32,000 bases of DNA from contig NZ_JAYKGW010000071.1 of assembly GCF_035285525.1 (NCBI RefSeq), positions 1 to 32,000 of the forward strand, in the 5' to 3' direction. The notes under the pieces were generated by a model that had not been told where the DNA came from, made no database searches, and saw only the letters and a list, made by a program, of their open reading frames with translations. The DNA comes from Okeania sp. GTDB taxonomy: Bacteria; Cyanobacteriota; Cyanobacteriia; Cyanobacteriales; Microcoleaceae. Each line of letters opens with the position of its first letter. Within the stretch, counting starts at the first letter, position 1. Below, piece by piece: positions 4,373-32,000 of this stretch. A program made the translations under genes and the position numbers.

Positions 4373-4467
4373 ATATCTCTGGAAAAGAGGGAGTAGGGAG
4401 TAGAGAGTAGAAATAAAAAAGAGAAAGAATTGATGATTTTTGTGGTGTGGCTAATGTTACTTTAAAT

Positions 4468-6060: not shown

Positions 6061-6100
6061 TTTTAAGAAAGAAGAAAGAAGAAGGAAGAAGGAACACTTA

Positions 6101-6455
6101 GGGGCGGGTTTATGTACACCTTAGAGTAACCATGAAAATTTCTGCTCAAACCTGCCCCTACCCCATGCACCATTTTTTGTAGGGGCGGGTTTCATTATTA
6201 AGTTAACGAGTCTTCACCGATAACTAGGCTAAACCCGCCCCCTATAATACCACGCACTCTCTAACGGGGCGGGTTTATGTACACCTTAGAGTAACCATGG
6301 AAATTTCTGCTCAAACCTGCCCCTACCCTATGCACCATTTTTTGTAGGGGCGGGTTACGGTTCCCGAAAAATCATAACGAAAGTTAAGGAGTATTCACCG
6401 ATAAGTAGGTTAAACTCTCCCCCATAATACCACTCACCCTCTAACGGGGCAGGTT
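6101..6455. repeat. cluster of GGGGCGGGTTT...AAACCCGCCCC hairpin elements, present as a ~165-180 bp tandem duplication
   Basis: Composite units start at 6101 and 6266, and a partial third starts at 6446. Each unit holds two small elements bounded by inverted GGGGCGGGTTT / AAACC(C/T)GCCCC termini. Confidence 0.8.
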
Positions 6456-7767: not shown

Positions 7768-7925
7768 AAGTTGTTCCTATTAAATTTCCTATTATAAACA
7801 GTCAAATTTCTATTATAAATCAATTTTTATCAAATATAGCAATTCTATTTGATTCGTGTTAGGTATGGAGGGAATAGGGAACAGGGAACAGGGAACAGGT
7901 TTAGGCGCATCATTGAGCAAAAAAA

Positions 7926-9116
7926 TTACTCCCCTACTCCCCTACTCCTTTTTTGACCTAACAATAATGAACCTGGCATTGCTTTTTTAATCCAATCTGT
8001 AATTAAGATTTGTTCGCGATCGCATGACTCAACTACTTCACCATTTAAGTTCCGAAATACTATTTCTGTTGGAATTTCTATTTCTTCCCCAGTGGGTACA
8101 ATAATTTTCTCTATTTGAGCAATGGTAAAAGGTCGCAAACTTTGAAATACAACATAATTTCCACTTTCTCCAGCTAAAACCTCAGCTAAACCTATTTCTT
8201 GTCGATATGCAGCTAACTTATGTTTAGACTTCATTCGAGAAAATATAGAGGTAGTGCGGTTAGCATTGAAAAAAGGTGATCGTGTTGGTCTCGCCCAGTT
8301 TTTCCGCAAAGAAACAGGGTCAGTTAAAATTTGAGAACAAATTTTGTCAATATCTACTGCCACATCACCATCTTTTCCCAAATGTCGTAAGTCTAAACAG
8401 ACTGTATCTAAACCAGCCCTTTGTAAACCTTCCAGTTTATCCAAAATAAATTGATCTTTATCCAAAAACATAAATGTTCCGTGCGCTGTTTCCCAAGTTG
8501 GGAAAGGTCGGTTATTGCTATCCTCCGATGACACAGTAGTTTGCAAAGGAAATTTTGCTTCTGAATCAGAGTCTAATAAATGTGGAGACAATAGGGAACG
8601 TGGGGAATAAAACAACAAAATTTGCCCTACTCCCAAAACTTCGCAAGCAACAGGAAGTGTTTGACAATATTCAATTAATTTTTGTTCTGGCAGTTCGATA
8701 GATAAAATCAAACGTTCCAAAGAATCAGCAAAAATCTCACACCAACCCCGCAACCCTTCTATATTGTGATTACCTGTTTCTACAATTAACTGTAGTGGTA
8801 TATGAGGATGATGAATTTTCAACCACCAAGCTGCTCCTGGGTCAGCAACTCGCACTGCTGCAAATTTGCTCATATCCCACTGAGTCAGTTGTTCACAAAT
8901 TTGGTTCATAACTTGTTCTGGCATCAAAATATCCCACACTAAGACTGGACGCAAACCATATTCTGTGGCGGTTGATGCTAATGAGTGTGTTTGTGGTGGC
9001 GAGAGTTGTCCTTGTTTGGCAAGGAGAGTTGGTTGTACTAAAACTTCTTGTAAGTTAGGAGCGCTGACGCACCTGTTTAAATCATTGATGGATGAGACAA
9101 AAGTGTTAAATTGCAT
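7926..9116 (-). CDS. conserved protein, probably a U32-family peptidase-like protein
   Basis: 396-aa ORF. By-eye pattern resemblance to U32 peptidases (VLVWDILMPE..., AAVRVADPGA, LQLIVETGNHN, ERLILSIELP, EVLGVGQILLFYSPRSLL). The classic U32 Cys signature was not seen. The last codons (GVGE-stop) are encoded by a GGAGTAGG short tandem repeat. Confidence 0.5.
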   Translation of the reverse strand: MQFNTFVSSINDLNRCVSAPNLQEVLVQPTLLAKQGQLSPPQTHSLASTATEYGLRPVLVWDILMPEQVMNQICEQLTQWDMSKFAAVRVADPGAAWWLKIHHPHIPLQLIVETGNHNIEGLRGWCEIFADSLERLILSIELPEQKLIEYCQTLPVACEVLGVGQILLFYSPRSLLSPHLLDSDSEAKFPLQTTVSSEDSNNRPFPTWETAHGTFMFLDKDQFILDKLEGLQRAGLDTVCLDLRHLGKDGDVAVDIDKICSQILTDPVSLRKNWARPTRSPFFNANRTTSIFSRMKSKHKLAAYRQEIGLAEVLAGESGNYVVFQSLRPFTIAQIEKIIVPTGEEIEIPTEIVFRNLNGEVVESCDREQILITDWIKKAMPGSLLLGQKRSRGVGE

Positions 9117-9128
9117 TATATCCTAACT

Positions 9129-9212
9129 ACTGCGTAAGTCCTGATTTTATCTCTTTACCAAGACTTACGCAGGGGAACCCAGAAAGTCGGTTTTTTTTTG
9201 CGTAAGTCCCGA
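9129..9212. mobile_element. GCGTAAGTCC-type MITE fragments (one solo end plus a ~50 bp mini-element)
   Basis: Three GTAAGTCC/GGACTTAC-type motifs at about 9132, 9161 and 9200. The element abuts and truncates the Rpn-like pseudogene. Confidence 0.5.
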
Positions 9213-9224
9213 TCTATATATTAT

Positions 9225-9444
9225 ATAGATTTTCTCCTCTTTCTGAAATTGTACCTCCGTAAAATAAATTGGTTGGTCAATATCTTGAGGTAAAAATACC
9301 CCATCTATTCTAAAGGCGGTCTGTTTTAATTCTACCGAATCAAAAGGATAATCATTGAGTTTTTTTTGGTACTTCTCCCCACAAAGAAAAGAAGGTTTCG
9401 GGTAAGTCTTGGAAAATTCGAGCAAATATATGGTCGGTTTTCAT
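9225..9444 (-). pseudogene. Rpn/DUF2887-like (PD-(D/E)XK recombination-promoting nuclease / putative transposase) pseudogene
   Basis: ATG at 9444 gives MKTDHIFARIFQDLPETFFSLWGEVPKKTQ-stop. The family continues in another frame (the track ORF 9165..9425: ...YPFDSVELKQTAFRIDGVFLPQDIDQPIYFTEVQFQKEEKIY) after a frameshift in an A8 run near 9360-9367. It then runs into MITE sequence and is truncated. Confidence 0.7.
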
Positions 9445-9506
9445 TTGATCTAAGGATTAATTATTAACCTCTATTTCTTCATTTCTTCATCAAGATGCAA
9501 GGGGTT

Positions 9507-9941
9507 TTATAATGATAACAACTGAGCTTGTTGAATCCATTTTTGCACTAAATCTACTGTCGGACAAAGGTCACGACGTTGCATAGTTGATACCTGTAAT
9601 TTTAGTATTTGTTGGTGTAATCTATGAACAGGTATTTGAGATAATTGAGAAACTGAAGCAATACCACCATGAAGCAGAAGTCCACAGTATTCATAACCAA
9701 CGGTAGGAATTCTCGCTAAGTCTGCTAATGCTACCCATTTTTTGATATATTGAGGATGAATTTTTAATTTACTTGCTAATATTAATTTTTGTTGGGAAGT
9801 ATGGGTAATTTCCAAAATTTTTCTAGTAGAAGTAATGCCATATTTTGTTAGTAATTCTTGATGTTCTTTGCTTAAACCAGGCAATTTATCAATAGACCAG
9901 TTTTGAGATTTTATTGATGAAATTTTTGTAATTTTTTTCAT
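9507..9941 (-). CDS. DUF4332 domain-containing protein
   Basis: The track ORF extends to 9971, into the repeat array. The ATG at 9941 (MKKITKISSIKSQNWSIDKLPGLSKEHQELLTKYGITST...) fits the usual DUF4332 N-terminus (helix-hairpin-helix-like). Confidence 0.7.
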   Translation of the reverse strand: MKKITKISSIKSQNWSIDKLPGLSKEHQELLTKYGITSTRKILEITHTSQQKLILASKLKIHPQYIKKWVALADLARIPTVGYEYCGLLLHGGIASVSQLSQIPVHRLHQQILKLQVSTMQRRDLCPTVDLVQKWIQQAQLLSL

Positions 9942-9962
9942 GGTTTTATTTAGTAATAAGTG

Positions 9963-10852
9963 GTAACACAACCTTCCAGGTTGTTACAGCCTCGAAGGCT
10001 GTGTTACAAATTACTATGTAACATAACCTTCCAGGTTGTTACAGCCTCGAAGGCTTACAAATCACTATGTAACACAACCTTCCAGGTTGTTACAGCCTTG
10101 AAAGCTGTGTTACAAATTACTTAACACAACCTTCCAGGTTGTTACAGCTACCGAAGGCCGTATTATAAATTAATATGTAACACAAGCATCTTGCTTGTTA
10201 CAGCCTAGACTGCGATATTACAAATTATTATGTAACACAAACATTCTACTTGTTAAATCCTAGAAGGATGTGTTACAAGCACTATGTAACACAAGTATCC
10301 TGATTATTACAGCCTCGAAGGCTGTGTTTCAATTGATAGAAACAAGGTTCCTGATTATTACAGCCTCGAAGGCTGTGTTTCAATTGATAGAAACAAGGTT
10401 CCTGATTATTACAGCCTCGAAAGCTGTGTTACAATGGATAGAAACAAGTATCCTGCTTATTACAGCCTCGAAGGCTGTGTTTCAATTGATAGAAACAAGG
10501 TTCCTGATTATTACAGCCTCGAAAGCTGTATTACAATGGATAGAAACAAGGTTCCTGATTATTACAGCCTCGAAGGCTGTGTTTCAATTGATAGAAACAA
10601 GGTTCCTGATTATTACAGCCTCGAAAGCTGTATTACAATGGATAGAAACAAGGTTCCTGCTTATTACAGCCTCGAAAGCTGTGTTTCAATTGATAGAAAC
10701 AAGGTTCCTGATTATTACAGCCTCGAAAGCTGTGTTACAATGGATAGAAACAAGGTTCCTGCTTATTACAGCCTCGAAAGCTGTGTTACAATGGATAGAA
10801 ACAAGTATCCTGCTTATTACAGCCTCGAAAGCTGTGTTACAATGGATAGAAA
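9963..10852. repeat. tandem array of ~17 hairpin-forming units (six diverged 51-56 bp units, one 53 bp transition unit, ten exact 51 bp units, then a truncated end)
   Basis: Unit starts, read directly, are at 9963, 10018, 10069, ~10121, 10177, 10232 and 10286. From 10339 they recur every 51 bp up to 10798, and the array ends at about 10852. Two unit variants (CAATTGATA type and ACAATGGATA type) are interleaved. Confidence 0.95.
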
Positions 10853-10913
10853 TTAATCTTCATCTGCACTATCCAAAATTATTAATTATTAATTATTAAT
10901 TATCTTTGCTACT

Positions 10914-12095
10914 TTAACGTAAAATTCCTATCTTTTTCAGTCGCTCATCTAATTGTCTCAAAAACTTTAAATCTATCTTTGGTAAATACCCCTTATTGTC
11001 TTTTTCTAAAAAACTAAAAGCTTGTCTAAACTCATTACCACTTGCCTGAATAGGTACATCAAAATGACAGGAAATAACTTGCTGAAAATTCCAACTTGCC
11101 ACCTTTTCAACCCACTCCATGACCTGGTGGGGATCGCGATTTAAAATCAGAGTTTGCAGTATAGGCGCTACTAACAACCGACCATCCTGGCGTAATTCTG
11201 TAAAAGCACGCTGCCAGTCTGAGTTCCATCGCCACGGTAAGAGACCAAAATATGCACGCTTTGAGCGATCGCTTGCTTTCCCAACATTCTTAAACATTTC
11301 CCCAGTCGGAACTACATCTAAAGCATCCACCTGAAAATATAATGCAAACAAACATATTTTTTGCCACCCTATACACCTATTTCCTGGAGTATCTTCTACC
11401 ACATCAAACACATTATCTTTGGCATGAAATAATAATGGATAAGGGTCTAAATTTAAAATCTCCGGCGGTTCAGCAGGAAGAGATAACACAGTGTCAACCG
11501 CCAGTAAAGTTTTGGATACACTATGCCAAAATGCCACTTCCGCAAAAGGTCGAAAACCAATATCAAGAGGTCCCAAGGTTGCGTAGTCAAATTCCGCTGC
11601 AAAAGGTGCATCGCCACTATTCACAGGAAGTAAGTAAGTACGGTTTCTGGGCAAACCCAACCAACTCAAGGGTAAATTTAGAGGAAAACTCCATTGGTTG
11701 GGGGTGACAAAAACTTCCGCTGTGGGAAATTTTCTGGCAAATGGTCCTACATATACTTTATGTTCTAAACCAGAAATAGTTGGTAAAATAATGTAGCGAA
11801 CTTCTCCATATTTTTCTACCAATTCATTCACCAGGCGAACACATTCCCACGTTGGTGCTATGGGAGCGTAGACAAATAAACCCCCTCCTATCATTCTCAC
11901 TACTGTCATTCTAATTGGTACAGTAACATAAAAGATACCCTGGAGTTGGTCAAAAGTCCAGATTGTATCTTTAACTATTTCTTTTCTTAATGTCCGCCGT
12001 TGACCATAAGGATATAGGGGTAAAATTGGCCATAGTGGCCATGACCAATCCCTAGAATTAAAATTTGGTTGTTGTTTTTGTTTCCCTGAAAGCAC
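10914..12095 (-). CDS. DUF4336 domain-containing protein
   Basis: 393 aa. WSWPLWPILPLYPYGQRRTLRKEIVKDTIWTFDQLQGIFYVTVPIRMTVV... matches my memory of the cyanobacterial/plant DUF4336 family. The ORFs at 11119..11334 and 11342..11707 are antisense shadows. Confidence 0.7.
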   Translation of the reverse strand: MLSGKQKQQPNFNSRDWSWPLWPILPLYPYGQRRTLRKEIVKDTIWTFDQLQGIFYVTVPIRMTVVRMIGGGLFVYAPIAPTWECVRLVNELVEKYGEVRYIILPTISGLEHKVYVGPFARKFPTAEVFVTPNQWSFPLNLPLSWLGLPRNRTYLLPVNSGDAPFAAEFDYATLGPLDIGFRPFAEVAFWHSVSKTLLAVDTVLSLPAEPPEILNLDPYPLLFHAKDNVFDVVEDTPGNRCIGWQKICLFALYFQVDALDVVPTGEMFKNVGKASDRSKRAYFGLLPWRWNSDWQRAFTELRQDGRLLVAPILQTLILNRDPHQVMEWVEKVASWNFQQVISCHFDVPIQASGNEFRQAFSFLEKDNKGYLPKIDLKFLRQLDERLKKIGILR

Positions 12096-15648: not shown

Positions 15649-16325
15649 ATTTCCTCATTTTGCTAGATTAGAAAGAAGGGAGAAGTCAAAGGAAAGAAGA
15701 GAAAAACACCCTGAAAGAGAGAAAGCTTTTTGATTACCGATTATTTATATTGAAATTGTGCTATACGGATGTTTTTTGTTAGCCATAATCCTAATTCCAG
15801 GTGTGACAGGCTAGGTCATGTTTAGCAAGTATTATTTTTTGCTAATTATTCCAGTGCAGTTCAGTTTTAAATCTTAGTAACATAAAACAAACAATTAGAA
15901 ATTATCAATACGTTATAGCAGATTATGGGCAACGATATCTTCCCATCTCCCCATCTCCCCATCCCCTACTTAATTTTATAAATCCGGTTAGGAGTTCTAT
16001 ATATATCATAGTACTTTTCCGTAAGTCCTGTAAACCTGATTTTGGCTAAACATTATGTTCGGAGAATAAGAATCTGATCAAAAAACTTTCTCCTTTCTCA
16101 CCTTTTTTTCCTTCTGTCTTCTAGTTTTTGCCTTTCTTCCTCCTAAATCTTAGTAGAACTTACCCATAGACCATAGATATAGCGCTCAAAACTATAGTCC
16201 TATAGTTTTTTAAGTCTATATTATATAGTACCTTTGCTTAAGTTCAACTGGACATGATATAACATCCTAATGATAGAATTATCTATTGTATTATTAAGTA
16301 ATAATACCATTATTGAAGAAAATCT

Positions 16326-26536: not shown

Positions 26537-26965
26537 TAATGAATAATGAATCATTAAGTAGTAGGTTGGATTTCGTTCTGATACCCAACAAAAATATTTC
26601 TCCCGTAAAGACGTTGCATGGGTACGGACGTTATCAAGGAAAAGCTTGAAACTTCTAGGAATTAATGATCAATTATCAATTGCTAAAATGAATAATGAAT
26701 AATTAAGTAGTAGGTTGGGTTGAGGAACGAAGCAAAGGCAAAAATCTTTCTCAAGACGTTCCATGGGTATGGACGTTATCAAGGAAAAGCTTTAAACTTG
26801 TAGGAATTAATGATCAATTATCAATTGCTAAAATGAATAATGAATAATTAAGTAGTAGGTTGGGTTTCGTTCTGATACCCAACAAAAATCTTTCTCAAGA
26901 CGTTCCATGGGTATGGACGTTATCAAGGAGGAATTAAGGAATTAATTATCAATTACTAAAAAGAG
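26537..26965. repeat. three tandem copies of a ~145-149 bp unit in the divergent promoter region
   Basis: The anchor GTAGTAGGTTGG occurs at 26558, 26707 and 26852. Each unit contains half of a GTAGGTTGGGTT MITE, GACGTT(C/G)CATGGGTA(T/C)GGACGTTATCAAGG and AGGAATTAATGATCAATTATCAATTGCTAAA. Confidence 0.85.
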
Positions 26966-27860: not shown

Positions 27861-27873
27861 AGGAAATTATGAA

Positions 27874-27928
27874 TTTAGGTTGGGTTGTGCTGGATATTTT
27901 CATGTTTGGGAGCAAAACTCAACCTAAA
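27874..27928. repeat. short TTTAGGTTGGGTT...CTCAACCTAAA hairpin (mini-member of the GTAGGTTGGGTT family), possibly a terminator
   Basis: Imperfect inverted termini begin 14 nt after the stop at 27860. Confidence 0.45.
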
Positions 27929-28109
27929 ATATGAAGTTACGCGATCGCGTAACTTTTGTATTCTAATGAGTCTATTAATTCGTCACTTGATGGTAGGTCG
28001 AGTAATTGATTTTAGTTTACCATAATAATTTGATTGTGACATTTGAACTGTTTAATTTTAGCAAATGAATGATATAGTAGGAAATAGCTAACTTAAAAAC
28101 AAAAAAACT

Positions 28110-28211
28110 ATGATTACTATTAATTTAAAACCAGAAATTGAAGCTCAGATTCGAGAAAAAGCTAAATTATTAGACTTATCAATTGAACAATATATTGAAA
28201 ATTTAATATAA
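28110..28211 (+). CDS. possible 33-aa ORF (MITINLKPEIEAQIREKAKLLDLSIEQYIENLI), antitoxin/RHH-like flavour
   Basis: ATG at 28110 and TAA at 28209-28211. Too short for the ORF track. The resemblance to small cyanobacterial antitoxin-like peptides is from memory only. Confidence 0.3.
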   Translation: MITINLKPEIEAQIREKAKLLDLSIEQYIENLI

Positions 28212-28218
28212 ATAACAG

Positions 28219-28438
28219 GTAAGCATTCAGCCGTCAGCTATCAGCTATCAGAAGAGTGATTTTAATCTTTGATAAAAGCTTTATTAATTGAGCCAAAAAA
28301 ATCTTACTAAAAAAGTCATTCCACTTGATATTAGAGTCTATATTCGTTGAAATAATCTCCTTAAAAACAGGATTTCTTTGCTGTTAACGAAGTTCCGACC
28401 CAGGAGACTGGCTGAGGTGCTAATAGCTGAATGCTTAC
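28219..28438. mobile_element. 220 bp MITE with perfect 13 bp terminal inverted repeats and a perfect 8 bp target-site duplication
   Basis: GTAAGCATTCAGC at 28219-28231 and GCTGAATGCTTAC at 28426-28438 are flanked by AATAACAG at 28211-28218 and 28439-28446. Confidence 0.85.
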
Positions 28439-28571
28439 AATAACAGCTTTTAGATTTTATAGTAAATTGGTATGGGGGAAATTTCAGTAAAGTAAGCAAA
28501 CATCAACCTAATTAGGAGTTTAATTTATGAATTATATTGACAAGACTACACAAATATATCGGACAAATGAA

Positions 28572-28977
28572 ATGACTAATCTTTATGAAACTGATTTTGT
28601 GGAGTGGACTGTTCAACAAGTTCAAGCATTAAATAATCGTAATCTAAAAGCACTTGATTGGAATAATTTAAAGGAGGAAATAGAAGACTTGGGAAAAGAA
28701 CAAATTCATGCTGTTAGTAGTTTTATCAAAAGGTTAATTGAATACAAACTTAAACTAGACTATTCCTCCGATATTTATCCTCGCAACCACTGGTAAATTG
28801 AAGTTAATAATTTTCAAGATGAAATTGAGAGAAGACTAACTAAAACTTTGTTAAATAAGGTGGATATAAATAAAGAATATGAAAGAGCTAAAAGATTAGT
28901 TTTCAGTGAATCTAAAATTAGACCTTCCTGATAAATGTCCTTATAGTTTTGCTGATTTAATGGAAAGATTACTATAA
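28572..28977 (+). pseudogene. DUF29-family pseudogene (in-frame stop plus a +1 frameshift)
   Basis: MTNLYETDFVEWTVQQVQALNNRNLKALDWNNLKEEIEDLGKEQIHAV... is a typical DUF29 N-terminus. There is a TAA at 28794-28796. The frame stays coherent to the TGA at 28929. The family C-terminus LPDKCPYSFADLMERLL is in the +1 frame and ends at 28977. Confidence 0.75.
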
Positions 28978-28989
28978 AATTGACCCAAA

Positions 28990-29185
28990 TTTCTACAAAC
29001 TTCGATTCTGTGCATAATTTATATTTTTTGGGTTAGTTCATTTTTTTTGTCTGAGGTACGACATAATATTTACCTGATTTTCAAAGTTTTCTGCAAACTG
29101 CCATTCTGTGCATAATTTATATGTTTGGATTAGTTCATTTGTTTGTCCGAGATATGACATAATATTTACCTGATTTTCAAGGCTT
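28990..29185. repeat. two tandem copies of a 98 bp unit
   Basis: ATTCTGTGCATAATTTATAT occurs at 29005 and 29103. Both copies end in ACATAATATTTACCTGATTTTCAA. Confidence 0.8.
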
Positions 29186-29394
29186 TCAATTTGAATTAAT
29201 TATGCAAGATTTATGAATAATTTATGCAGGCTAACCCAGAAACCTGGTTTCTGATGGATGTTTATTCTTGAAAACAATCATTTCTCCTATAAACCGGGTT
29301 TTTTTGTCTAATTATTGTTATTATAAAAATTGTTAAAACTAATTTCTGATTGCTATAATAAAAAAATTTAATAAATAACTACACAGGAGTTATG

Positions 29395-29569
29395 CAAAGT
29401 AACTAAGAAACCGGGTTTATTGCCACGATATTGTTGTTCAAACCAAGATATTTCATCAACCCGATTTCTGCGTAAGTTCTACTAAAAGTAACTAAGAAAC
29501 CGGGTTTATTGCCACGATATTGTTGTTCAAACCAAGATATTTCATAAACCCGGTTTCTGTGTAAGTCCT
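29395..29569. mobile_element. two tandem copies (~86-89 bp) of the AAACCGGGTTT / GTAAGTCCT MITE
   Basis: AAGTAACTAAGAAACCGGGTTTATTGCCACGATATTGTTGTTCAAACCAAGATATTTCAT is repeated almost exactly at about 29408 and 29486. Confidence 0.8.
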
Positions 29570-29603
29570 ATTAGATTAATGTTAGTTAGATAAGGGTGTA
29601 TGG

Positions 29604-30773
29604 ATGGAAAAAAGCGACTTAACGCTGGAAGATTTACAGAATGCTAATAATTTAGAGGGAATAGGAAATGTTTTTCGGAAACTTGGCTACAACACAACTG
29701 TAGAACTACTTAAGTCTAGAAGAGTTGGAGTTACCAACTAAAAGTTTTGAAGCTGTGATAGATGCTTATATTATTGCAGATATAGGTAGTGGAAATTTAC
29801 AAATATTGTTATTTCAGTTAACAGCTCAAGAGTTGAGTTCTGAGAATACAGCTAAGAGTAAAATGAAGGCGATCGCTGAAAGTTTATGTCAACGTCCTTC
29901 TAAATTTTTATGACTGGCAACTAAAGATTATCAACAACTTTTATTAGGCAGTCCTCAGCAAACTTTAGATGATAATTAGAAGCTAAAAGTTAATATCAAG
30001 TTTTGTTATATAGACTTTACTAATCCTAATTTTCAGCAACTAAAGACATTCAAAAAAATTGCACTTTTTCACCAAGAAACGAAAACTCTTCATCAAAATC
30101 AGTACCAAGCTTTAGATGATATTAAGCTTTTTCAACCAACAGGTAAAAATAATAAAAAGGAAGTCGTGAAAGAATTAGGCAAATTCAGGCAAAAGCTCTG
30201 AGGAAACTGATCTATAAAAATTTTGAAAGCTTTTTTGTAAATTATCTTTGCTCTAAAGAAGTTAATATTAATCCGGAAAAACATTTGATATTTGAACATC
30301 TTTATCTTCAAGCTATTAAAAAAAGTGTTAATTTTAATGTTCAACCTGTACCCAATAATAATCTTGAAAAAATCAACTCAAAAAGAGGTTTAGATGATAC
30401 TATTTTTAATGTTTTAGAAAGAGCAGTATAGAATTTACTTAAAGATTTTAAACGGCAGCAAACTAGCAGTAAATTTAGACCTAAACTAAATAAATTATAG
30501 CAGAAAATTTACTTGTTTTTGGAACAGCAAACTAAGGATGTATTAGACTTAGAATATCGAGAGACTATCGAACGGGTTCTGGAAGTAATTGCTACAGAAA
30601 ATCTGCGGAGTATTGAAAGAGAAATTAAGCAAATATGGCAGCAATATATTGATATTAATAGTTTCGTCTCTGACTTACATGAAATTTTTGTTGATGCAGA
30701 ACTTTATTATCAACTTGAAGAGGAGAAAAAATCAAACCCATTAGACATGATAAAAGCTGAAGATATTCAATGA
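29604..30773 (+). pseudogene. heavily decayed ~390-codon gene of unidentified family
   Basis: There are three frame segments: 29604-29738 in frame 0, about 29716-30201 in frame 1, and 30198-30773 in frame 0. Protein-like translation continues straight across the in-frame stops at 29911, 29977, 30199, 30429 and 30498. The track ORFs 29725..29913 and 30513..30773 are surviving pieces. Confidence 0.6.
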
Positions 30774-30857
30774 ATTTGTTATCAGTTGTTTAAACCTTTT
30801 CACGGAATTAAAAAGCAAGATTTTATCACCTCCAAACTTTAACCCTATATTCAGCAA

Positions 30858-30999
30858 TTAATAATTAATAATTACCCCTTCTTTAAAGAAGGGGATTGAC
30901 TAATCATGAAGATTTATCCCCAATCCTTGGGTAGGCTTCCATGTGTGAATTCTTGAATGAATAATTATTGACTATCAACTCTTAATTATTAATTATTAA
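30858..30999. repeat. perfect 17 bp inverted heptamer-repeat arms (TTAATAATTAATAATTA) enclosing a perfect 20 bp palindrome
   Basis: The arms are at 30858-30874 and 30983-30999. CCCCTTCTTTAAAGAAGGGG lies at 30875-30894. Confidence 0.7.
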
Positions 31000-31108
31000 C
31001 TATTAGACATCTCCAAAAATAAAAAATTAAATCAATTATCGGACAGAAATCATCTATTCTTTTCCCCTACTCCCTACTCCCTCTTTTCTGAAGAAACCGG
31101 GTTTCTAG

Positions 31109-31392
31109 GGTGTGTCATCAATTAGATGTTAGAAGCTTGATCAACAAAAGTAGTGGACTGACAAAGCTCAAACTGTTCATTACATCATTGGGGGGGTGGG
31201 TTTATCTAACTCACTTTGAAAATTGTTCATTGCACGGACGTTGCATGCAACGTCCCTACAGAGGAACCCGCCCCTACCGACCGCACAATTTCAGGTATGC
31301 GCTCGCTGTATCTGAACCTACCCAACTGCGATCGCCATTTTTACATAACAGAGAATAGCTTTTTTGTCAACTTATTTAATTGATGACACGCC
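31109..31392. mobile_element. 284 bp MITE nested inside an AAACCGGGTTT-family MITE
   Basis: The TIR GGTGTGTCATCAATTA at 31109-31124 matches the reverse complement of 31377-31392 at 15 of 16 positions. The element is flanked by CTAG (31105-31108) and CTAA (31393-31396). The host MITE halves lie at about 31085-31108 and 31393-31465. Track ORF 31110..31358 is inside the element and judged spurious. Confidence 0.75.
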
Positions 31393-31534
31393 CTAAGATA
31401 AATCGTTATTTTTATAACAGATATCTAGAAAAAAACCGGTTTCTGGGTTTGTCTGCGTAAGTCCAGTTAATGTCACAAAGATTTATCACGGTTAGCATTA
31501 GTTCGCCAAATCTATTGTAAAATCACGGAATTAG

Positions 31535-32000
<466 letters not shown>

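Follow-up and report, generated by a model that had tools for sequence, protein, structure and literature searches.

What is the long tandem array that separates two genes of the marine cyanobacterium Okeania sp. (Oscillatoriales, Microcoleaceae), and are its many hairpins kept by selection or by the way in which palindromes mutate? The array occupies positions 9963-10852 of a 32,000-nucleotide stretch of contig NZ_JAYKGW010000071.1 (hereafter the window), between a DUF4336 and a DUF4332 gene. A previous description made from the letters alone, which we call the sequence-only reading, had taken it for seventeen hairpin-forming units under a constraint on structure. We find that the array is somewhat more probably than not (roughly 0.55) a lineage-specific, non-coding palindromic minisatellite and a new sequence family. 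A young palindromic minisatellite is the most likely explanation because close relatives lack the array and nothing shows a dedicated function for it.

The array is real, and it is composed of 17 hairpin-forming units spread over 890 bp. We set the unit boundaries by anchoring on the conserved motif TTACAGC and recovered the coordinates and unit lengths of the sequence-only reading. Tandem Repeats Finder detects by far the strongest repeat of the window at 10291-10852 (period 51, 11.0 copies, 92% matches, score 942). The array is wholly intergenic and, as had been claimed, nearly fills the 972-bp spacer between the two genes (9942-10913), of which it takes 92%. It is composed of three parts:

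9963..10285: six old, diverged units (u01-u06) starting at 9963, 10018, 10069, 10121, 10177 and 10232, with lengths of 55, 51, 52, 56, 55 and 54 bp, which differ from one another at 4-20 positions
10286..10338: a transition unit (u07) of 53 bp, whose left half is of the old type and whose right half is of the young type (TGTTTC...GAAACA)
10339..10852: ten young units of exactly 51 bp (10339-10848) plus 4 nt, which differ from one another at 0-7 positions, several of them being identical

The differences among units thus draw an age gradient from the left to the right of the array. Just seven columns vary among the ten young units, which come in two variants, an A-type with GGCTGTGTTTCAATTG and a B-type with AGCTGTRTTACAATGG, alternating with a partial 102-bp period. 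The core 19-mer of the units, TTACAGCCTCGAARGCTGT, occurs 14 times in the window, always within the array, while none is expected from shuffled sequences.

We found the same junction in an independent assembly, where a short-read contig from SRR19514071, with a DUF4336 gene 100% identical to that of the window, is the same as the window up to 10823 and ends 30 nt inside unit 17. This exact match confirms that the right junction of the array is real, although it does not extend to the copy number. Since the contig ends inside the array, the sequence behaves as a repeat for the assembler. At this same border (10844-10874) the last unit finishes in GGATAG, which pairs with a CTATCC in the unique flank, 19 nt away, so that a small inverted repeat includes the right boundary.

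Each old unit is built of two paralogous 17-nt hairpin modules, H1 and H2, and of a spacer whose ends pair with the next unit as H3. The hairpins that matter most for what follows are:

9968..9984: H1 of unit 1, ACAACCT-TCC-AGGTTGT, a 7-bp stem with a 3-nt loop (-6.4 kcal/mol on either strand)
9986..10002: H2 of unit 1, ACAGCCT-CGA-AGGCTGT, a 7-bp stem with a 3-nt loop (-8.8 kcal/mol)
10001..10024: H3 joining units 1 and 2, GTGTTAC-aaattactat-GTAACAT
10177..10231: unit 5, in which two pairs of H1 are flipped (C:G to G:C and T:A to A:T), making it the perfect palindrome ACAAGCA-TCT-TGCTTGT, while H2 is destroyed

The sequence-only reading had drawn H1 as ACAACC-ttcca-GGTTGT; the hairpin is there, with the longer stem and shorter loop given above. 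It had also assigned three stems to every left unit. These stems exist, but per-unit hairpin energies indicate that all three are stable together in unit 1 only. H1 is stable only in units 1-5 and lost in the other 12 of the 17, and H3 is stable in seven units and lost in ten; H2 is the best-kept hairpin (15 of 17 units), being weak in units 4 and 5. The arms TGTTTC/GAAACA, which had been attributed to the 51-bp units as a class, are found in four of these ten and in unit 7, whereas in the other six H3 contains an A.A mismatch. The two 17-mers H1 and H2 are paralogues: 12 of their 17 positions agree, and an A:T versus a G:C pair sets them apart. The 55-bp unit is therefore itself built of a smaller palindromic module.

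Compared with shuffled sequences, the array folds much better than expected. The left part reaches -115.8 kcal/mol on the plus strand (z = -8.9) and -132.9 kcal/mol on the minus strand (z = -11.5), and the right part has z-scores of -5.6 and -8.6, respectively. This signal is stronger than in every control intergenic region of the window, where two other tandem arrays also fold better than their shuffled versions (z of about -4 to -6). Because every module is self-complementary, minimum-energy folds favour long hairpins between units over the local stems.

Does this folding potential reflect selection? The main argument for it was a set of three compensatory pairs among the units. All three are present, and we detected a fourth at alignment columns 13/17 (T:A to A:T). 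When substitutions are placed randomly on a simple tree of the units (the ancestor leading to u02, u03, u04 and a node X, and X leading to u05, u06 and u07), 0.49 compensated events are expected against the four observed (P = 0.0009). The number of broken pairs is also lower than expected under a star tree (18 and 26.6, respectively, P = 0.005). Since compensated events exceed chance and broken pairs fall below it, complementarity has been maintained non-randomly in the old units. These figures compare paralogous units, as an orthologous array was found in none of the collections searched.

The non-random part of the earlier claim of structural constraint thus stands (P of about 9e-4), while selection on the three-stem structure is not supported: the case for it is weak, and the evidence does not point clearly that way, for several reasons. 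The more robust measure, the number of pairs with double changes, equals the mean of the shuffles (3 and 3.3, respectively), and only scores that are sensitive to the relatedness of the units exceed them. Each of the four compensations is a double transversion (C:G to G:C, T:A to A:T, G:C to T:A and A:T to T:A), and three are flips from X:Y to Y:X. Under selection at the RNA level, compensation is usually of the transition type, with a G.U intermediate (PMC8794818); none of the four is of this kind. Two of the four, together with four of the six substitutions of that branch, fall within 9 nt of a single hairpin, H1 of unit 5. Finally, stems hold five of the seven variable columns of the young units, with compensation at none of them, and the ten youngest units have no H1, six of them having no H3 either.

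Template switching within a quasi-palindrome, a type of mutation reportedly described by Ripley in 1982, had been named by the sequence-only reading as an alternative to selection, and it predicts exactly the clustering of paired changes in one hairpin that we observe. According to Montinnen and Loytynoja 2022 (PMC8794818), clustered and matched multi-base changes are the footprint of this process. The array resembles such cases in its clustered, matched changes on both hairpin arms and in its perfect stems without wobble intermediates, as in H1 of unit 5, where the two flipped pairs yield a perfect palindrome. Template switching is a mutational mechanism and not an element family, and we infer it here only from the pattern among the units. 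Copying from arm to arm would turn a change in one arm into the matched change in the other, so that stem complementarity may have been kept mainly at the DNA level, by template switching or by arm-to-arm copying in the quasi-palindrome. Templated mutation would suffice to produce the matched changes and explains the maintenance of the hairpins at least as well as selection.

Selection, if present, could act on the array as RNA, and the arrangement of the locus gives a direction for this:

10914-12095, minus strand: DUF4336 gene, 393 amino acids, intact (Pfam E = 6e-144), upstream of the array in the direction of transcription
10877..10903: run of the heptamer AATTATT, 3.9 copies, between the array and the DUF4336 stop codon
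9507-9941, minus strand: DUF4332 gene, 144 amino acids (Pfam E = 5e-35), whose ATG is separated from the last array unit by 21 nt

Because the two genes are co-directional, no minus-strand terminator-like site is found in 9400-11400 and so little sequence separates the array from the DUF4332 start, the array is most likely transcribed on the minus strand. It is probably carried on a DUF4336-DUF4332 transcript as an intercistronic or leader RNA, forming a train of stem-loops. If DUF4332 is expressed, its leader would have to include array sequence, given the 21 nt left between the last unit and the ATG. The minus-strand RNA is also the better paired of the two, with 90.3% of the cells paired versus 84.2% on the plus strand. 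Recurrent G-to-A changes produce C.A mismatches on the plus strand and G.U wobbles on the minus strand; at H2 pair 29-36, for instance, six units have CG and six UG on the minus strand, while seven are unpaired on the plus strand. This pairing asymmetry favours the minus strand, which is suggestive and no more, since few independent events underlie it.

The array could accordingly be read as a selected, minus-strand, cis-acting RNA, whose stem-loops would govern how the DUF4336-DUF4332 transcript is terminated or translated, or how stable it is. Such an RNA would agree with the co-directional genes and the lack of a minus-strand terminator-like site between them, with the short distance to the DUF4332 ATG, with the wobbles that one-sided G-to-A changes form on this strand only and with the excess of compensated pairs. 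However, relatives with 92% identity express the same genes without any array, H1 and H3 are gone from most of the young units, the wobble asymmetry comes down to a handful of independent events and the double changes did not take the G.U route. We consider a selected RNA of this kind unlikely, and retain the palindromic minisatellite as the preferred explanation.

The distribution of the array among relatives bears directly on the minisatellite. The sequence-only reading had suggested the Nostocales as the group in which to look for synteny. This comparison does not apply, as the host is an Okeania and the adjacency of DUF4336 and DUF4332 is found in no relative examined, being unique to this genome. 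The array is absent from all orthologous DUF4336 or DUF4332 loci examined in Okeania, Dapis and Trichodesmium, even from those with 92% identity. DUF4336 orthologues align over their full length with 88-92% identity, and different sequences follow the gene in each lineage: small open reading frames (ORFs) in Dapis, a response regulator in two other Okeania, a pyridine-nucleotide oxidoreductase in Trichodesmium and Pmp3 in three contigs with a 92%-identical DUF4336. Similarly, the DUF4332 orthologues of Okeania KiyG1, of a Cyanobacteria metagenome-assembled genome (MAG), of Trichodesmium and of a 92%-identical metagenomic contig are preceded by unrelated sequence. The uniqueness of the gene pair places the array at a point of rearrangement.

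Two observations were made next to these genes. Just downstream of DUF4332, an 86-amino-acid ORF on the minus strand (9165-9425) aligns with the 200-position DUF2887 profile over positions 23-74 only; probably it is the remnant of a gene, which fits a local rearrangement. In Dapis sp. BLCC M229, a 137-amino-acid ORF with a Cas12f1-like TNB (TnpB-type) domain (locus L003, 1323-1736) lies near the DUF4336 neighbourhood, which indicates activity of the IS200/IS605 type in the clade.

We searched for further copies of the unit well beyond these loci. A covariance model of the unit finds no copy elsewhere in the window, where the best match outside the array has E = 0.19 and lies inside a gene, and none in 131 kb of related loci; the scattered copies that the sequence-only reading had named as the case against its own view were thus not seen in either. 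The exact 19-mer core has one match in 185,579 GTDB species-representative genomes, which is at chance level and unrelated, in a Bacillota MAG. BLAST of the array region against plasmids returns no match to the array and only the DUF4336 gene, in a Kovacikia record, and against phages it returns nothing. Searching metagenomes for TGTAACA-N12-14-TGTTACA-N12-14-TGTTACA gave, among the matches listed, unrelated satellites only, some of them beside telomere-like repeats. Rfam 15 has no match at gathering thresholds, and at E-values up to 10 only spurious microRNA and small nucleolar RNA matches; ARAGORN detects no transfer or transfer-messenger RNA. These negative results for the array should be read knowing that short-read assemblies break at such arrays. 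The impression that the array matches no described element is borne out by Rfam, by BLAST against plasmids and phages, by the protein search described below and by the 19-mer scans, all of which lack a relative.

The scans of viral contigs produced a single finding. Three mutually related IMG/VR contigs, L128 (8227-8252), L129 and L130, share 26 nt of exact identity, TTATTACAGCCTCGAAAGCTGTGTTT, with the H2 region of the array, extending 7 nt past the 19-mer. In the viruses this identity sits in a RuvC-like resolvase ORF, in the same frame as the open frame of the array (ITASKAVF). It is probably a coincidence, though an unexplained one. A clustered regularly interspaced short palindromic repeat (CRISPR) locus was considered and rejected, as the whole 51-bp unit repeats without unique spacers, the window has no cas domain and the sole Rfam CRISPR-DR match scores 19 bits against a threshold of 37.

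These searches also bear on whether the array is a local cluster of some mobile palindrome family (for example REP/BIME, REPIN or MITE) with many copies dispersed elsewhere in the genome. In architecture, REP/BIME clusters of enterobacteria, and BIME-2 in particular, are the closest known system. BIME-2 elements undergo clustered tandem expansion. Like them, the array is a group of extragenic imperfect palindromes of about 17-35 nt that fold into stem-loops, as H1-H3 do in the spacer; it lies between co-directional genes with which it is probably co-transcribed; and it probably grew by local tandem duplication and shows compensatory changes in its stems. Other hairpin repeats in the window and the nearby truncated DUF2887 gene, whose family is related to recombination nucleases, would be in keeping with a mobile origin.

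REP/BIME families, however, count tens to hundreds of dispersed copies per genome and are associated with a RAYT gene. The unit has no second copy in the remaining 31 kb of the window or in the 131 kb of relatives, the search with the covariance model included, and the one exact core match among the representative genomes is unrelated. Scanning of the window revealed no RAYT-like (Y1 transposase) gene. There is no sequence similarity either, the modules are self-palindromic rather than alternating inverted Y and Z REPs, and 17 units exceed the size of typical BIMEs. From the sequence covered here a dispersed mobile family appears quite improbable, and the array would be better described as a minisatellite that grew in place.

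Predicted signals for transcription can be found in the array, and they raise the question of whether each repeat is a gene. Generic sigma-70-like promoter matches occur on both strands of every unit. On the plus strand, six promoter-like matches fall in B-type units and five terminator-like sites in A-type units and in unit 7, and the two kinds of site alternate through 10339-10700. Such an alternation would be expected of a plus-strand array of small RNA (sRNA) genes similar to NsiR1, which the sequence-only reading had cited as a precedent. Each 102-bp block would then produce an RNA of about 45-50 nt, the B-type unit acting as an extended -10 promoter (ATTACA-16-TGtTACAAT) and the next A-type unit as a terminator-like H2 followed by UUUCAAUU / TTTCAATT. 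Yet the pattern comes down to a single chance match that the repetition has copied. Promoter-like sites that are just as good exist on the minus strand of each unit, the U-tract is poor, and the array closes with three B-type units in a row.

NsiR1 itself is encoded by tandem repeats that precede hetF in heterocyst-forming cyanobacteria (Ionescu et al. 2010, cited in PMC6596454). That array is conserved across these cyanobacteria, and each of its repeats is a transcription unit with a HetR/NtcA-dependent promoter. The Okeania array resembles it in that each unit has a hairpin and promoter-like hexamers. Unlike NsiR1, it is found in a non-heterocystous host, its neighbours are DUF4336 and DUF4332 and not hetF, it has no Rfam match and no DIF1 or NtcA motif, its units of 51-55 bp are too short for a promoter, an sRNA and a terminator, and it is not conserved even among congeners. 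Membership in this family is rejected, as family match, host, neighbours and motifs all fail, and an sRNA array of the NsiR1 kind appears improbable to us.

Similarly doubtful is the proposal that the array is a multi-copy transcription module, in which each 51-bp or 102-bp block is a self-contained promoter-hairpin unit with hairpins kept by selection. The module would fire either towards DUF4332, as tandem promoters with the H2 palindrome as a spacer, or the other way, in which case it would be a gene for a small RNA of some 45-50 nt.

The palindromes could also be bound as DNA. A dimeric DNA-binding protein might use the array, like iterons or the F-plasmid sopC centromere, to nucleate a nucleoprotein complex. 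Its sites would be the inverted heptamers TGTAACA/TGTTACA of the left units, spaced by 20, 20 and 15 bp, or, among the right units, TGTTTCA...GAAACA. No columns of the left units are better conserved than the TGTAACA/TGTTACA heptamers. The H3 arms of the right units resemble parS half-sites (TGTTTCA/TGAAACA). In the ten young units, though, two of the three heptamers are altered, and no parS match is found at up to three mismatches because a 3-nt insertion splits the dyad. DIF1 (TCCGGA), NtcA (GTA-N8-TAC), HLR1, DnaA-box and parS motifs were not found in the array.

The comparison with sopC/parS, the other precedent suggested by the sequence-only reading, fails in a similar way. Both systems have tandem units of about 50 bp with an inverted repeat in each, and the right-unit H3 arms are parS-half-site-like. 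Here, however, the array sits among housekeeping genes of a chromosome, the 32 kb contain neither parA nor parB nor rep, the split dyad has a different centre, and the inverted repeat is lost in six of the ten young units, the H3 dyad being intact in seven of the 17 units overall. Membership is rejected on both context (no parA or parB in the window, no plasmid match) and site. Since the array is also absent from relatives, we regard a protein-binding array as very improbable.

The unit length of the young repeats, 51 = 3 x 17, and two plus-strand frames that are open across them would be compatible with a protein-coding repeat of 17 residues, in an ORF of 209 amino acids (10270-10899, plus strand). 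Its translation has no relative among 5.8 billion proteins, which argues both against coding and against similar arrays being mistranslated elsewhere. Pfam gives sub-threshold matches only, with zero significant stretches, the variable sites are two synonymous and five non-synonymous, and the frame is broken in the left units. Nor does the array look like an artefact of assembly, as the right junction recurs in the independent assembly, whose break within the array is what a true repeat would cause. Both a coding repeat and an assembly artefact are therefore highly implausible.

Some of these results weigh against a minisatellite without function. The excess of compensated pairs (P of about 9e-4) and the presence of H2 in 15 of the 17 units fit selection on hairpins equally well. 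The promoter-like matches in every unit and the plus-strand terminator-like hairpin of the A-type units could, as predicted signals, indicate a function. Finally, that the array is a single locus holds only for about 32 kb of the source genome and for the relatives. We still prefer the palindromic minisatellite.

Its history would have begun with a hairpin of about 17 nt (ACARCCT-nnn-AGGYTGT), which may have duplicated to form the 55-bp unit of H1, H2 and spacer. Slipped-strand replication or unequal recombination could then have amplified this unit in tandem, at the site where the gene order was rearranged in the Okeania lineage. The left units would be the old ones, and a recent expansion of one decayed variant would have added the 51-bp units and 102-bp blocks of the right end. 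If the array has any effect on the transcript that probably carries it, this could resemble that of REP/BIME elements, namely a block to 3' exonucleases, protection of the upstream messenger RNA or uncoupled expression of the two genes.

The intergenic DNA of this genome is rich in long-period tandem repeats, and several other repeats were detected in the window:

6099-6356: intergenic tandem array, 81 bp x 3.1, with a long inverted repeat TAGGGGCGGGTTT...AAACCTGCCCCTA in each unit followed by a T-run (z = -5.7, plus strand)
26538-26929: tandem duplication, 145 bp x 2.7
28990-29187: tandem duplication, 96 bp x 2, its unit not hairpin-rich
29396-29570: tandem duplication, 89 bp x 2, its unit hairpin-rich (z about -4)
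27861-32000: about 4 kb with no ORF of at least 100 amino acids (the largest has 89), GC content down to 28-31% and two tandem duplications inside

The last of these regions looks like the long non-coding stretches reported for the Trichodesmium clade. Short STRR-like runs of heptamers or octamers also occur in intergenic DNA (CTTCTTC, AGGGAAC, TACTCCCC, AATTATT and ATCTCCCC), for example at 242-273, 1168-1202, 4388-4410, 7869-7899, 7927-7948, 10877-10903 and 15937-15963. In Logan data for the same sample, short-read contigs terminate no more than about 40-75 nt from a gene boundary, with STRR-like repeats as a possible cause.

Repeats of this clade can be transcribed. In Trichodesmium erythraeum, abundant sRNAs are associated with repeats of 736-973 bp and have transcripts of about 250 nt (Pfreundt et al. 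2014, summarised in PMC6596454). The likeness is that Trichodesmium is the sister genus of Okeania, with a genome rich in repeats and low in coding density, in which tandem repeat arrays are transcribed. The Okeania array differs in having no sequence relation to those repeats, and the Trichodesmium loci examined lack it.

The locus marks a recent rearrangement point in the Okeania genome and explains why short-read assemblies break there. Since the Trichodesmium/Okeania clade is already known for abundant repeat-derived RNAs of unknown function, a discrete transcript from each unit would make the array a new type of tandem sRNA or promoter array in this repeat-rich clade; if its blocks were promoter-hairpin modules, it would be a new counterpart of the NsiR1 array, and a very compact one, in a marine cyanobacterium without heterocysts. 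If the array is a palindromic minisatellite, as we favour, it would be a clean natural example of a short palindrome growing into a nested minisatellite, and it would indicate that matched, apparently compensatory changes in hairpins can accumulate without demonstrable selection. This second point would caution against inferring a functional RNA from covariation among paralogous repeats.

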